From: Alphaproteobacteria bacterium
Lineage (GTDB): Bacteria; Pseudomonadota; Alphaproteobacteria; UBA828
Reading direction: 5' to 3'
Length of the DNA: 64,000 nt
NCBI GenBank assembly: GCA_965237415.1
Contig: CBDEFM010000002.1
Coordinates: forward strand, 1,632,001-1,696,000
The notes under the pieces are model-generated. The model was not told where the DNA came from and did not search any database. It worked only from the letters and a program-made list of their open reading frames with translations. Each line of letters starts with the position of its first letter. Position 1 is the first letter of the stretch. Both the position numbers and the translations under genes were made by a program. Shown here piece after piece: positions 44,831 through 49,466 of the stretch.

Positions 44831-45646
44831 TCAGGCGAGCGCCGCCAGCACCCGTCGGACGAACACGCCGGTCATGCGCCGGCGATACCATTCGCTCGCG
44901 ACAGCATCGGTCTGGGGCGTAACGGCGCTCTCGGCCGCCTGGGCCGCCGCCGTCACCGCCGCCTCGTCGAGGCTGGAGCCGATCACCGCCTGCTCCGCTT
45001 CGGCGCAGCGGAAGGGGTGCGCGCTCGCCCCGCTGAGCGCGATCCGCGCGTCGCTCACCGTACCGCCATCCTTTTCCACGCAGGCGGCGACCGTGACCAC
45101 CGACGGGGTCGAATAGCGGCGCCGCGCGCACTTCATGTAGGCGGCGGCGCCTGTCGGCGCGTCGATCTCGATCCGGGTCAGCAAGCCTGTGCGGGGCGGC
45201 GTGCCGTCGGACCAGCCGGCGTAGAAGGCTTCGATCGGTTGGGTCTCCTCGCCGTCGGCAGTCGCGAAGACGAGCCGCGCGCCGAGGGCGAGAAGCGCCG
45301 GCGCGAGATCGCCGAAGGGGGCGCGGGCGAACAGGTTGCCGCCGACCGTCGCCATGTTCTGCACCGCCGGGCCGCCGATCTCGCGGGTCGCGGCCTGGAG
45401 TGCGGCAATCGGCACGGCCTCGCGCAGCACGCTCAGCGGGACCGCGGCGCCGACAGACCAGCCGCCGTCGCGGCTCACCACCCGGTCGAGGCCGAGGCGG
45501 TCCACCCCGATCAAGTAGCCCTCGTCCGACGGATAGGTCTCGCGCATCAGGCTGGTGCCGCCGGCGAGCACTGCCGCCGCGGCACCGTGGCGCGCGATCA
45601 GGTCGGCCGCCTCGTCGATCGAGCCGGGCCGAAGAAACTCTGGCAT
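44831..45646 (-). CDS. FAD-binding subunit (CoxM-like)
   Basis: LAGGTSL, QNMATVGGN, ASEWYRR. Confidence 0.92.
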   Translation of the reverse strand: MPEFLRPGSIDEAADLIARHGAAAAVLAGGTSLMRETYPSDEGYLIGVDRLGLDRVVSRDGGWSVGAAVPLSVLREAVPIAALQAATREIGGPAVQNMATVGGNLFARAPFGDLAPALLALGARLVFATADGEETQPIEAFYAGWSDGTPPRTGLLTRIEIDAPTGAAAYMKCARRRYSTPSVVTVAACVEKDGGTVSDARIALSGASAHPFRCAEAEQAVIGSSLDEAAVTAAAQAAESAVTPQTDAVASEWYRRRMTGVFVRRVLAALA

Positions 45647-45777
45647 GGACGCCGTCCTCCGACCGTTGAAATACCGCCCGCGCCCGTCCGGCCCATGTCG
45701 TGCACCGGCGGCGCGCGGCGCGCATCCTAACGCAGCAACGCTCGGATCACACCCGCATATCCGCGCCGGGTAGTGTC

Positions 45778-46659
45778 TCAGTTTGAAATTTCGCGCTTGC
45801 GGTAGGTCGCAGGCCGCTTGGGCTTCGACGCTCGCGCATCGATCAGCCCGACGATCCACTCCATGTCCCTCAGCGTGTCGGACACGCCAGCGGCCATCGC
45901 GGGCGACATGCGCAGGCTCTTATGCATCCGGCAGAAGTTGTAGTGCACGAAGTAGAGCGACAGCATGTGAAGGTGATTCTCCAGCTTCTTGGAGAAGGCA
46001 TTCGTGAGCCGGGTGAAGCGGCGCATCCCCATCCGCATAGTCAGGTTTGACCGTTCGACGTAGGACGTGCTGACGGCCTCAGGATCGGAACTGCCCTCGA
46101 CCCGGCGCCGCTTCGTCCCGATGCATGTGGCGGGGCTGTAACGCTTCTCAGCGCCCGGCGCCTCGCCGTAGAGCTTGATTAGCTGGGCATAGTCCACATC
46201 GCCACCAAAGGCGCCCTCGACGGCTTCCAGATACGCCTTGTGGCCGTCGGTGGTCAGTTGAACGCGGTTTGCCAGCCGGGCGCGCAGGTCGTCCATGAAC
46301 TCGATAGCCGTGGCGCCTGAGCGGTCGCCAACTTCCCACGAGATGATCAGTTTGGAGTCGGCTTCAATCGCCGTCCACGTCCACACGTCGCCGGCGCCCT
46401 TCGGGGCAGCCTTGGCACGCGCGACGTTCTTTTCCTTCGCGTAGCAGAAGGACCAAATCTCATCGCACTGGACGCGGCTGGCAGACACGTCGCGCACGGC
46501 CTCATCGTGATAGGCCGCGCACGCCTCGCCAGCCTCGACCATGAGCTTGGAGACCGTGTTGATTGAAACGTCCATAACACGACTGACCGAGCGCATGGAC
46601 ATGCCCTCGACCAACATGTTGAGGATTTGGACTCGCTTGTCAGTTGGCAGCCGGTTCAT
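45778..46659 (-). CDS. IS1-family DDE transposase (single ORF)
   Basis: HTH, QCDEIWSF, TTDG, TSYVERSNLTMR, RRFTRLTNAFSKK; stop lies inside the IR. Confidence 0.92.
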   Translation of the reverse strand: MNRLPTDKRVQILNMLVEGMSMRSVSRVMDVSINTVSKLMVEAGEACAAYHDEAVRDVSASRVQCDEIWSFCYAKEKNVARAKAAPKGAGDVWTWTAIEADSKLIISWEVGDRSGATAIEFMDDLRARLANRVQLTTDGHKAYLEAVEGAFGGDVDYAQLIKLYGEAPGAEKRYSPATCIGTKRRRVEGSSDPEAVSTSYVERSNLTMRMGMRRFTRLTNAFSKKLENHLHMLSLYFVHYNFCRMHKSLRMSPAMAAGVSDTLRDMEWIVGLIDARASKPKRPATYRKREISN

Positions 46660-46665
46660 ACCCCT

Positions 46666-46694
46666 GATATAGGGGCGTATTCACTTGTTGTCAA
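46666..46694 (-). promoter_or_regulatory. Internal transposase promoter
   Basis: TTGACA-N17-TATATC, 6 nt before the ATG; -10 lies within a CCCCT/AGGGG inverted repeat. Confidence 0.65.
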
Positions 46695-46894
46695 GCATTA
46701 CTTTCATCTTGGGGCGGGTTAGGAGCCCTTACCGGAGTTAATTCGACATTGCCATTTCCCAATGGATGAATCGCAATGCGCTCATTCCATGGCATCCCTG
46801 TCTTCTCCCGCACAACCCTTGTTTGGCAAACTGGAATATCCTTCACAGAAAATGCAAACTTCAGCTCGATGTTTATGAAATTTTGAAAAACCAT
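46691..46894 (-). CDS. Small IS cargo protein, weakly AbrB/MazE-like
   Basis: VREKTGMPWNERIAIHPLGNGNVELTPV; starts 5 nt after the upstream stop. Confidence 0.4.
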   Translation of the reverse strand: MVFQNFINIELKFAFSVKDIPVCQTRVVREKTGMPWNERIAIHPLGNGNVELTPVRAPNPPQDESNA

Positions 46895-46899
46895 GGGAC

Positions 46900-47172
46900 T
46901 TACTCACCCACATAATAGAAATACAGCTCTCCATCTGCACGCTTAACCGCCACGAACCACCATTCCATGAAATGAAAGGGATACGGCTCATTGGCATGCA
47001 TGAGGTGCGATGAAATCTGTAGCGACTCGCCATTCCCAAGAAAGGGCGATCTTACGGGTGGCACTGCAACGCCTTGATAAGCGCCAACTTCAGAAACCGC
47101 CCAGCCCTGTTGTTGAGACATTGTGGCAAGAACGCCTCGTGTGGTCACAGCGTCTTGCTCCTTCATGAGCAT
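46900..47172 (-). CDS. Hypothetical IS cargo protein (90 aa)
   Basis: GGGGAGG RBS, 2-nt gap after the upstream ORF, low GC. Confidence 0.6.
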   Translation of the reverse strand: MLMKEQDAVTTRGVLATMSQQQGWAVSEVGAYQGVAVPPVRSPFLGNGESLQISSHLMHANEPYPFHFMEWWFVAVKRADGELYFYYVGE

Positions 47173-47174
47173 GG

Positions 47175-47465
47175 CTACTGAACCTCCCCGTCGATGTTGG
47201 ACTCCGGCCCGCCACTGACAGACACTTGCACTTGGTGCCTCACGGCAACTTCTGGATCACCGTCCGCTGTAAATGCTGGATTCCCGTCCTTATCGAGGAC
47301 GCGAAATATCTTGTGAACGACGACTTTGATCCGCACATTATCACCGCTCGCAAGACTATACTCATTCCAGCGCTCTTTATCGGCATCAAACGACTCTTCG
47401 CGGACGTTCCGGGTCTGCCCATCAATTTCCATTTCCCGGATATTATAATTTCGGCTCTTAGGCAC
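47175..47465 (-). CDS. Hypothetical IS cargo protein (96 aa, beta-rich)
   Basis: GGAG RBS and GTG start; ERWNEYSLASGDNVRIKVVV...GDP. Confidence 0.65.
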   Translation of the reverse strand: MPKSRNYNIREMEIDGQTRNVREESFDADKERWNEYSLASGDNVRIKVVVHKIFRVLDKDGNPAFTADGDPEVAVRHQVQVSVSGGPESNIDGEVQ

Positions 47466-47467
47466 GG

Positions 47468-47692
47468 CTATGCTCCAGGCCATCTGGTAGTTGCGGCCTT
47501 GCGCGCGATCGCGCTGCGCTCATCCGGCGTCAGGGACGCCTGGCGCGCGCGTGCGCCAGCATGGCCGGCTCGCACCTTGTTCGGTTGCTTGTATTGTGTG
47601 TCCTCAATTTCGCCAGTTGCTATCCTGGCGACGTGTACGGCGCACCCAACCACGTCAGCCGGGCGCTTCTCTCCTCGTGGCCCCTTGGGCAC
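47468..47692 (-). CDS. Small basic protein commonly associated with IS1-type transposases
   Basis: MPKGPRGEKRPADV...IATGE...LTPDERSAIARKAA..RW. Confidence 0.8.
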   Translation of the reverse strand: MPKGPRGEKRPADVVGCAVHVARIATGEIEDTQYKQPNKVRAGHAGARARQASLTPDERSAIARKAATTRWPGA

Positions 47693-47760
47693 GGCTAGCG
47701 CCGTTCCACGTCGGGCACTCGCTCCACTCTGTTCGCCATGCTCATCTCCGCTCCCCCTCT

Positions 47761-47841
47761 AGGTTCCCTAGGTTCCCCAGGTTCCCCAGGTTCCCCAGGT
47801 TCCCCAGGTTCCCCAGGTTCCCCAGGTTCCCCAGGTTCCCC
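47761..47841. repeat. 9-bp tandem repeat (AGGTTCCCC) x9
   Basis: Eight perfect units plus one AGGTTCCCT. Confidence 0.95.
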
Positions 47842-48128
47842 GTGTCCCACATGGTATCACAGGATATCCCATGTCAAGCCCAGTCTGGGCCAGCGGACCC
47901 CCAGTGCCCGTTCAAGCATACCGTTTCCCGGCAACCTTATGCCCGTCTCAGATTCTCGCCAGCGGTAAAGCTGGCAAGCGGACGGCACTGGAGCATGACC
48001 GTCAAGGGGCGACCGATTTCAAACTGAGTCACTACCCCGCGCCGACATAGCTGGCGTGCCGCTCTGACCTTGCCGCGCCGCCGGCAGGGCGGCTATCGTC
48101 CGCCGCGCAATCGATGGCGAGGCGCGCT

Positions 48129-49466
48129 ATGGCAACGAGGCCCGACGCGGTCGGCCGGAATCTCGACCTGGAGAGCGCGGTCGACGAGGTGACGGCGCGC
48201 TATGCGGCGGCCAATCCCGGCAGCCGGGCGCAGTACGAGCGCGCACGCGAGAGTATGCCGGGCGGCAACACGCGCACCGGCATGTTCTACCCGCCCTTCC
48301 CGCTCGCGATCGAGAAGGCGGCCGGCGCGACGCTGACCGACGTCGACGACCACACCTACACCGATTTCGTCGGCGACTTCTCTGCCGGTCTCTACGGCCA
48401 TTCTCACCCGGTGATCCGCGAGGCGGTGCAGGCGACGCTGGATTCCGGGATGGCCTATGGCTCGACGAGCCCCTACGAGGCGCGGCTTGCGGCGCTCGTC
48501 TGCGCGCGCTTCCCCTCTATCGAGCAGGTGCGATTCACCACCTCCGGCACCGAGGGCAACATGCTGGCGCTCGTCACCGCCCGTGCGGTGACCGGCAAGG
48601 ACTCGATCATGGTGTTCGAGGGCGCCTATCACGGCGGCACCATCTACTTCGGCCGCGAGGCCGCGCCCATCGTCGTGCCCTTCCCTTTCGTGATCGCCCC
48701 TTACAACGACGCGGAAGAGGCGCGGCGCCTGATCAGGGAGAACGCACACCGCCTCGCCGCGGTTCTGGTCGAGCCGCTCCAGGGCGCATCCGGCGCGATT
48801 CCGGCCTCGGTTGAATTTCTCGCAGCGTTGCGCGAGGCCTGCAGCGCCCACGACGTACTGCTGATCTTCGACGAGGTGATGACCTCGCGGGTCGCGCCGG
48901 ACGGGCGCCAGGGGCAACTCGGCATCGTCCCCGACCTGACCACGCTCGGCAAGTATATCGGCGGCGGCTTCTCCTGCGGTGCCCTCGGCGGCCCCGCGGA
49001 GATCATGAAGTGTTTCGACCCCTCCAGACCCGACTCCTTCGTTCACCACGGCACCTTCAACAACAACGTGTTCATGTTGATCGCCGGCGCCGCGGGCCTG
49101 GAGAAAATCTTCACACCGCCGGTGCAGATTGCGCTGAATGAGGCCGGCGATGCGCTGCGCGACGCCCTCAATGGGCTTGCCGCCCGCCACGGCGCCTCGT
49201 TCCAGGTGACCGGGCTCGGCTCGATCATGACGATGCATTTGCAGCGTGAGCCGATCCGCTCGATCCGCGACATTGCGCCGCGAGATTCACGCCTGCGCCA
49301 GCTCCTGCATCTCGACCTGATCGACAAGGGCTTCTTCACTGCCCGGCGCGGCTACATGGCGCCCTCGCTCGCCATTGCGGGGACGGACTGCGACGGCCTG
49401 ATCGAGGCGGTCGACGAATTCCTGACCCACCACGGCCATCTTCTGGACGCCGCGCCGGACGGATGA
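48129..49466 (+). CDS. Class III PLP aminotransferase (GSA-aminomutase/beta-transaminase-like)
   Basis: MPGGNTR, SGTEGN, GAYHG, FDEVMTSR, TLGKYIGGG, GTFNNN. Confidence 0.9.
   Translation: MATRPDAVGRNLDLESAVDEVTARYAAANPGSRAQYERARESMPGGNTRTGMFYPPFPLAIEKAAGATLTDVDDHTYTDFVGDFSAGLYGHSHPVIREAVQATLDSGMAYGSTSPYEARLAALVCARFPSIEQVRFTTSGTEGNMLALVTARAVTGKDSIMVFEGAYHGGTIYFGREAAPIVVPFPFVIAPYNDAEEARRLIRENAHRLAAVLVEPLQGASGAIPASVEFLAALREACSAHDVLLIFDEVMTSRVAPDGRQGQLGIVPDLTTLGKYIGGGFSCGALGGPAEIMKCFDPSRPDSFVHHGTFNNNVFMLIAGAAGLEKIFTPPVQIALNEAGDALRDALNGLAARHGASFQVTGLGSIMTMHLQREPIRSIRDIAPRDSRLRQLLHLDLIDKGFFTARRGYMAPSLAIAGTDCDGLIEAVDEFLTHHGHLLDAAPDG

Follow-up and report, generated by a model that had tools for sequence, protein, structure and literature searches.

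An IS1-type element that probably belongs to a widespread, passenger-carrying clade with rapidly changing cargo

In a 64,000-nucleotide stretch of an alphaproteobacterial genome (contig CBDEFM010000002.1, positions 1,632,001 to 1,696,000; we will call this whole stretch the window), we identified an intact IS1-type insertion sequence (IS) that holds three small cargo genes between a gene for a small basic protein and its transposase gene. It is most probably a copy of a widespread clade of IS1-family elements that encode their transposase in a single open reading frame (ORF) and that always carry passengers, which would make it a “transporter IS” (tIS). We delimited 75 related elements, all with the same ends. 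The basic gene and the transposase gene are constant in these elements, and the DNA between them is unrelated. A first-pass annotation of the window, made from the sequence alone, had suggested that this slot is a variable cargo position, and the catalogue of relatives bears this out: the cargo differs almost every time. The cargo turns over much faster than the chassis diverges, and the recognisable cargo of the relatives consists mostly of immune/defence or toxin-antitoxin modules.

An intact IS1-type element

The coordinates of the element and its parts are given in Table 1. The two inverted repeats match at 20 of 21 bases, with one mismatch, and GGTAGTG forms the first bases at both ends of the element. 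An exact 8-bp duplication, CCGCGCCG, directly adjoins both ends. The near-perfect repeats, the exact duplication and the length of 2268 bp are thus as the first-pass annotation described them, as are the 882-bp transposase gene and the four small ORFs upstream in the same orientation (the basic protein and then ORFs of 102, 90 and 67 amino acids). If up to three mismatches are allowed, the repeat pattern is found at exactly two sites in the 64 kb, versus 0 in 100 shuffles.

Table 1. Features of the element and of its insertion site, in window coordinates.
Feature	Coordinates	Strand	Remarks
IS1-type element	45769-48036	genes all on minus	2268 bp, between 21-bp inverted repeats
Target-site duplication, copy 1, CCGCGCCG	45761-45768		identical to 48037-48044
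Target-site duplication, copy 2, CCGCGCCG	48037-48044		abuts the element's other end
Inverted repeat beside the transposase gene (IR-R in element orientation), GGTAGTGTCTCAGTTTGAAAT	45769-45789		holds the transposase stop
Inverted repeat at the basic-gene end (IR-L in element orientation)	48016-48036		reverse complement is GGTAGTGACTCAGTTTGAAAT
Transposase, 293 aa, single ORF, 882 bp	45778-46659	-	helix-turn-helix (HTH) at about residues 8-40, then DDE domain
Putative transposase promoter block, TTGACA-N17-TATATC, then AGGGGT and ATG	46666-46694	-	sequence present; function predicted
Cargo ORF 3, 67 aa	46691-46894	-	stop TGA inside the -35 hexamer of the transposase promoter
Cargo ORF 2, 90 aa	46900-47172	-	GGAGG 10 nt before ATG
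Cargo ORF 1, 102 aa as listed	47175-47483	-	probable start GTG 47465 (96 aa), with GGAG upstream of this GTG
Conserved basic protein, 74 aa, GTG start	47468-47692	-	net charge about +7; present in 75/75 delimited relatives
Candidate upstream ORF, 51 aa	47695-47850	-	ends 2 nt before the basic gene; holds the 9-bp tandem repeat
Nine tandem copies of AGGTTCCCC	47761-47841		GGGGAACCT on the minus strand, in-frame Gly-Glu-Pro
FAD-binding subunit gene of molybdopterin dehydrogenase	44831-45646	-	flanks the insertion
Class-III aminotransferase gene	48114-49466	+	flanks the insertion

The transposase was described as IS1-type, which is consistent with Pfam and with the best, though sub-threshold, match in NCBIfam. 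The Pfam match is to PF03400 (DDE_Tnp_IS1; 28.3 bits versus a gathering score of 24.1, residues 198-237), and there is a weak match to HTH_Tnp_IS1 (E = 0.012). The transposase has at least 8000 homologues. Among the 120 matches listed, identities are 73-93%, all have PF03400 as their precomputed Pfam family, and the sole named match is “IS1 family transposase.” The residues D66, D138 and E202 are invariant in the alignment of homologues. The last codons of the transposase (E-I-S-N-stop) are encoded by IR-R.

Members of the IS1 family have ends that start with GGnnnTG and a target duplication of 8-9 bp, as defined by ISfinder. The window's element has GGTAGTG ends and a duplication of 8 bp. Its transposase signature, ends and duplication lead us to classify it as IS1-type; the single ORF and the missing zinc finger set it apart from classical IS1. 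IS1 itself, at 768 bp, is not known to carry passengers. A -1 frameshift between insA and insB' produces its transposase, which bears a zinc finger at the N-terminus; insA lies just inside its left end. Like IS1 of Escherichia coli, the element has the DDE_Tnp_IS1 signature, GGT..TG ends, the same size class of duplication, and a small basic gene just inside the left end, at insA's place. Unlike IS1, it encodes a single 293-residue transposase without a zinc-finger match, its basic protein has no similarity to InsA in the Pfam and NCBIfam searches, and this clade always has at least 562 bp between the basic gene and the transposase gene. Single-ORF subgroups of the IS1 family exist, including a long subgroup of the ISMhu11 type of up to about 4.6 kb, and the uninterrupted transposase ORF fits such subgroups.

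The transposase was also thought to have its own promoter, TTGACA-N17-TATATC. The sequence is present (TTGACA at 46694-46689, 17 nt, and TATATC at 46671-46666, which ends 6 nt before the ATG), and TGCTTGAC(A/G)-N17-TATAxx recurs just before the transposase ATG in most of the relatives listed, but the -10 hexamer is imperfect. A scanner for promoters and terminators reported 0 sites in the window's element. This consensus scanner made no call on the transposase promoter because the -10 hexamer ends in C, and the scanner requires T at position 6. Upstream of the ATG, most of the relatives listed have ATGCTTGAC(A/G), about 17 nt, a TATA-rich hexamer, and about 6 nt that often read AGGGGC. The conserved block includes an inverted repeat, TGCTT...AAGCA. 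Because the -10 hexamer is so near the ATG, transcripts from this block would be leaderless or nearly leaderless.

Related elements share a fixed chassis

We searched one genome per species and found 583 relatives, and we took the best 80 loci with 5-kb flanks. Of these, 75 were delimited by both inverted repeats. Four were left out (L010, L021, L023 and L029) as one end was absent within the search or at a contig edge, and a fifth (L074) was left out as it had no intact ORF with the motif used.

Nearly all of the 75 relatives have GGTAGTG at their ends. The 8-bp duplication is exact in 65 of them, has one mismatch in 4, is absent from 4, and falls at a contig edge in 2, and the target sequences vary from locus to locus. 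The elements are 2140-4790 bp long, with a median of 2955 bp. None is shorter than 2140 bp, and none is near the 0.9 kb of the transposase gene alone. The two longest (L007, 1105-5894, and L008, 2067-5888) owe part of their size to transposases nested in the cargo slot, which are of the IS66 type in L007 and DDE_Tnp_1 plus DUF772 in L008.

The basic gene lies 33-1892 bp from the left end, and 562-3564 bp separate it from the transposase gene. The transposase's stop codon lies within or next to the right end in 47 of the 75 elements; nothing lies downstream of the transposase gene in 47, and 100-1363 bp lie there in 28. The first-pass annotation was right that the slot before the transposase gene varies, but there is not one cargo position. 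There are up to three: one on either side of the basic gene (the second of these reaches to the transposase promoter) and one downstream of the transposase gene.

By their record titles, the relatives are mostly from Alphaproteobacteria. Other labels are Gammaproteobacteria, Acidobacteriota, Latescibacterota, Binatia, Nitrospirales, Desulfarculales and Syntrophaceae; many of these are metagenome bins, with the usual caveat on their labels. Transposases that are 64-85% identical are found in records labelled as several phyla. PGAP names the relatives only “IS1 family transposase,” and in the RefSeq annotation of two plasmid copies the only names are this one and “hypothetical protein.” When we compared the whole of the window's element to plasmids with megablast, there was no match.

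In one locus (L052, 1-260), a gap of 8 bp separates the left end of the delimited element from the right end of another family member. We considered a circular or tandem copy and rejected this, as the upstream 229 bp match the element's own end at just 65/229 bases. This implies that two different family members abut.

The cargo of the relatives

From 74 of the elements (L012 was left out), we chose 159 non-overlapping ORFs of at least 100 amino acids. In 58/74 elements, at least one of these ORFs had a Pfam match at E ≤ 1e-5. HTH_3 with Peptidase_M78 was the most widespread kind of cargo (15 elements). SocA_Panacea antitoxin domains were found in 9 elements, in each case followed by an unrecognised ORF of about 130 amino acids. 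There were also nSTAND1/AAA_16 ATPases (7 elements), P63C proteins (6), SDH-type proteases (3), and a dCTP-deaminase-like protein (DCD; 1). Bro-N, Fic, AAA_21/AAA_15, PemK/MazF, NYN, DUF4760, DUF6941, and a methyltransferase with HNH were found in 2 elements each.

We compared 105 of the 159 ORFs to the defence models of PADLOC; the ORFs left out were mainly repeats of the same families and leader ORFs. At E ≤ 1e-6, 27/105 ORFs, in 24 loci, had a match. The models matched were RmrA/RmrT (Rosmer), PD-Lambda-2_B, PD-T4-5, SoFic, PDC-S13, PDC-M06B, HEC-04, HEC-09, and type II methyltransferases. Locus L017 encodes RmrA (E = 4e-120) with RmrT (E = 2e-23) adjoining, and L035 also encodes both. In L034 and L062, the RmrT match lies beside a Peptidase_M78 ORF, and L002 has RmrA only. 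Rosmer was found in these relatives and not in the window's element. The first-pass annotation had suggested that the slot may spread uncharacterised genes. The cargo of the window's element is unrecognised, but that of the relatives is largely of known defence or toxin-antitoxin types.

When we clustered the ORFs from the slot, we obtained many small families, and the largest was found in 13 loci. Even among pairs of elements whose transposases are at least 80% identical, just 7/59 share any cargo family; at 60-70% identity, 103/2043 pairs do. For instance, the transposases of L027 and L035 are 96% identical, and the DNA that these two elements have in common is limited to the ends, 95 nt of the 5' part of the basic gene, and the promoter and transposase gene.

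The three cargo genes in the window

The probable start of ORF 1, GTG 47465, is 2 nt after the stop of the basic gene, and the aligned position (V7) is the start in five homologues of ORF 1. Provided that ORF 1 starts there, the gaps between the basic gene, ORF 1, ORF 2 and ORF 3 are 2, 2 and 5 nt, which agrees with the spacing of 2-5 nt that was first noticed. Shine-Dalgarno-like motifs are present among the cargo ORFs. The last codons and the TGA of ORF 3 overlap the conserved promoter block, so the cargo fills the slot exactly. The cargo was correctly described as low in GC: it is 50.2% GC, versus 65.8% for the basic gene, 61.7% for the transposase gene, and 65.5% for the rest of the window.

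Each of these ORFs is conserved outside the 75 elements, in a protein-like manner. ORF 1 has 10 homologues (54-90% identity), and ORF 2 has 13 besides itself (39-87% identity); the exact sequence of ORF 2 is present in public collections, without a name. For ORF 3, we found relatives in 67 representative clusters at E ≤ 1e-3, with the conserved motif DIPVCxTRIxRxGRGxPWNxxxAVHPLxDG (including a conserved Cys, Trp and His). The cargo ORFs are thus conserved; a lack of conservation had been named as an outcome that would refute the first-pass interpretation. The matches to ORF 1 and those to ORF 2 lie on contigs with the same set of five lengths, which suggests that ORF 1 and ORF 2 are a conserved pair. 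Two homologues of ORF 1 share the spurious N-terminal extension of the window's ORF (MVWGI.. against MAWSI..). Because the extension is an out-of-frame reading of the 3' end of the basic gene, this suggests that these two homologues would also lie directly behind a basic gene.

AlphaFold2 (AF2) models of ORF 1 (all-beta, pLDDT 67) and ORF 3 (pLDDT 68) are small beta-rich folds of moderate confidence. A profile of the ORF 3 family had only chance-level matches to the sequences in the PDB (E ≥ 0.23), and Pfam searches with 44 members of this family gave two isolated weak matches. ORF 2 had no match of 0.9 or above in the protein atlas. The cargo ORFs are small, coupled and next to one another; with Pfam, NCBIfam or PADLOC, we recognised no toxin or antitoxin family among them.

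The basic protein and the leader region

The basic gene was found in 74 of the 75 delimited relatives by blastp and in the other (L012) separately; it is also present in L010 and L074. The consensus of the protein is MPKGPxGEKRPADVIGxAVxVAxIATGEIEE, a variable acidic linker, and GGxARAxxLTPERRxEIAxKAAxxRW. It has no match in Pfam or NCBIfam, nor in PADLOC at E ≤ 1, and its profile had chance-level matches only to PDB sequences (E ≥ 0.23). In the protein atlas, it lies near clusters of up to 2739 members that have no Pfam family and are automatically named “RNA-binding protein family”; we treat this name as a lead and not as a result. Predictions of a complex between the transposase and the basic protein scored 0.01, 0.50 and 0.04 in three runs, versus a mark of 0.32, which argues neither for nor against binding.

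In one element (L071, element coordinates 34-261), the basic gene is on the opposite strand from the transposase gene, beside a minus-strand cargo gene similar to PD-Lambda-2_B; this is the sole element with that arrangement. In another (L070, 505-1536, minus strand), the N-terminus of a P63C cargo protein resembles the GGxARA...RW motif of the basic protein (50% over 46 amino acids, E = 1.5e-5). Two PHROG families of larger phage proteins also weakly match this C-terminal motif. The motif may be a separate small module.

The candidate ORF upstream of the basic gene contains the tandem array listed in Table 1. We saw no such array among the relatives in the output of TRF, which extended up to about L059. 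The in-frame array could be a leader peptide of variable length or a spacer. In Rfam, the repeat matches H19_3 at 29.9 bits versus a threshold of 46, and we judged this sub-threshold match to be spurious.

Some 40 nt ahead of the basic gene, six relatives with short leaders (L002, L018, L036, L049, L058 and L068) have a motif, TATGCTTAGCG..AAGCATAGGAG, that is similar to the TGCTTGAC..AAGCA block preceding the transposase gene; the two may be a common operator.

A 14-nt junction (stop TAG, CC, GTG CCn AAG) is found at both ends of the basic gene, at 47457-47470 and 47684-47697, with 13/14 bases alike. As a consequence, Val/Met-Pro-Lys is the start of the basic protein as well as of the first cargo protein. 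We considered whether this repeat marks a cassette junction and rejected that as unproven, as chance alone should yield about one pair of this kind in 2.8 kb. The match in register is striking despite that expectation.

A proposed mechanism

The fixed core of the clade comprises the 21-bp ends with GGTAGTG, a gene of about 75 codons for the basic protein near the left end, a conserved putative promoter directly against the start codon of the transposase gene, an HTH-DDE transposase with its stop codon usually inside the right end, and the 8-bp duplication. The middle position of the window's element holds three genes of foreign composition (96 or 102, 90, and 67 amino acids), which would form a translationally coupled operon read through from the basic gene. 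We propose that the entire unit, including the cargo, is moved by the transposase, which would bind the GGTAGTG ends. Transcription from the left end would continue across the upstream ORF, the basic gene and the cargo, with translational coupling between them, and the transposase would be driven by its own weak promoter. The basic protein, at insA's place, may be a nucleic-acid-binding regulator or cofactor that tunes transposition or expression. The host, or else the element, would benefit from the cargo, for instance through phage defence or post-segregational retention, and this would explain the persistence of single copies. Homologous recombination between co-resident elements, via the conserved blocks, would shuffle the cargo; it would not explain the first capture.

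The odds seem to us about even that the window's own operon acts as a small anti-phage or toxin-antitoxin-like module through which the element earns its retention. A more far-reaching proposal, which we consider possible but rather doubtful, is that the clade is a dedicated miniature shuttle for immune or addiction modules. Its ends, basic protein, near-leaderless transposase promoter and transposase would form an unchanging chassis, and the contents of as many as three cassette positions would turn over much faster than this chassis diverges. In that case, the basic protein would act in regulation or in cassette exchange, and the window's operon would be a new small defence or abortive-infection system.

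Evidence against, and alternative explanations

Several observations weigh against parts of this interpretation. As for the assignment to the IS1 family, the Pfam match to DDE_Tnp_IS1 spans 40 residues only. The match to NCBIfam's transpos_IS1 (NF033558; E = 2.6e-20) is the best by far, yet at 73.2 bits it is under the cut-off of 100. Also, there is no insA/insB frameshift in the window's element (the 293-residue ORF is uninterrupted), and the transposase has no InsA_N zinc finger at E ≤ 1 and starts directly with the HTH. As for the claim that passengers are always present, the 80 loci are the best-scoring ones, and more distant relatives might lack cargo. As for the nature of the cargo, the ORFs in the slot were chosen by a longest-ORF heuristic in GC-rich DNA, and some will be spurious; 16/74 elements have unrecognised cargo ORFs only; and for some of the cargo a role in defence is not obvious (DUF1330, Sel1, and the transposases of nested IS66 and IS5-like elements, in 1 element each). 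Finally, the window's cargo ORFs have no match in Pfam, NCBIfam, PHROG or PADLOC (for PADLOC, 0 families at E ≤ 1), and the models of ORF 1 and ORF 3 have no fold match in the PDB at E ≤ 0.001. A role of these ORFs in defence or as a toxin-antitoxin system is proposed by analogy with the relatives.

The three small ORFs might instead serve the element itself, as regulators, target-choice factors or anti-host factors for transposition, and not in defence or addiction. They are translationally coupled to the conserved basic gene, they match no defence model, and they are all very small. But neither blastp nor profile searches found any of them in the 75 related elements, whose ends and transposase are the same, or in the 5-kb flanks of these elements, so the transposition machinery does not need them. 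Also, the same slot elsewhere holds complete known defence systems. We consider this explanation improbable.

Even less probable is that the element is a fixed and immobile relic, with cargo diversity that arose from old recombination and not from ongoing transport. There is just one copy in the 64 kb, most clusters of the transposase family are on 1-3 contigs (among the matches listed), and 4/75 relatives lack a duplication. However, all of the ORFs in the window's element are intact, its ends differ by one base, and its duplication is exact. The 65 relatives with exact duplications are in many different hosts and at unrelated sites, and transposases that are still 64-85% identical are spread across records labelled as several phyla.

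If the small ORFs had merely arisen by chance or were decayed, non-functional fragments, this would account for the moderate confidence of the models (pLDDT 67-68) and the absence of an assigned function, but it is very hard to reconcile with relatives of each ORF down to 39-54% identity with invariant core residues, with a GC content of 50%, at which long frames stay open by chance less readily than at the 65% of the background, or with the tight spacing and ribosome-binding motifs.

Comparison to known elements

Elements that are otherwise like an IS and that carry passenger genes within their ends are a known category, transporter IS, for instance in the IS1595 family (defined in PMC9330008). 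The window's element has three conserved ORFs in the slot that separates the basic gene from the transposase gene, and in the relatives, known defence genes lie there. In having passenger genes inside the ends, the element resembles both tIS and the ISMhu11-type members of the IS1 family. Our literature search returned no paper on ISMhu11. Nor did we find a published description of this clade, its basic protein, the three cargo positions or the defence cargo; ISfinder and the main IS reviews were outside the coverage of this search, and the clade may be catalogued in ISfinder. No described IS with these passengers as fixed components turned up, and PGAP says only “IS1 family transposase.”

Lima-Mendez et al. 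2020 (PMC7157771) report toxin-antitoxin pairs inside the transposition modules of the Tn3 family, with a proposed role in stable establishment. The likeness is that addiction-type modules lie beside the transposition genes of a DDE transposon. The differences are that Tn3 has a transposase of about 1000 amino acids, a resolvase, and ends of 38-40 bp, while the elements described here are 2-5 kb. They also carry whole defence systems, and their cargo changes far faster than the transposase diverges.

Similarly, the cargo of Tn7-like transposons is reported to be rich in defence systems (Benler et al. 2021, PMC8649781), and the two kinds of element are alike in this. In contrast, Tn7-like transposons are large, encode several transposition proteins and use attachment sites; here, there is one small transposase and varied 8-bp sites.

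Implications

If the rule about the slot holds, then any set of genes between the basic gene and the transposase promoter would be a candidate defence or addiction module, and the window's three unrecognised small genes would be candidates for a new system of the defence or toxin-antitoxin type. Because the family is large (at least 8000 homologues, and 583 relatives with one genome per species), it could be mined as defence islands and Tn7 cargo have been, with boundaries that are known to the base pair from the 21-bp ends and the 8-bp duplications. If these elements are indeed shuttles for immune or addiction modules, then thousands of unexamined relatives would be a ready catalogue of new systems, found by position alone. 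It would also mean that complete immune systems can travel on elements no larger than an IS, in addition to large transposons, integrons and prophages, between records that are labelled as distant bacterial groups. The mechanistic questions that this raises are how cassettes are exchanged so rapidly and what role the universally retained basic protein has.

The insertion site

The window's element is inserted in a divergent intergenic region between two ordinary genes (Table 1). We inspected the flanking genes, and this site is not a defence island. The molybdopterin-dehydrogenase operon and the aminotransferase gene are separated by a divergent promoter region of about 190 bp (45647-45768 plus 48045-48113), which the insertion divides in two, and it may alter the expression of both.

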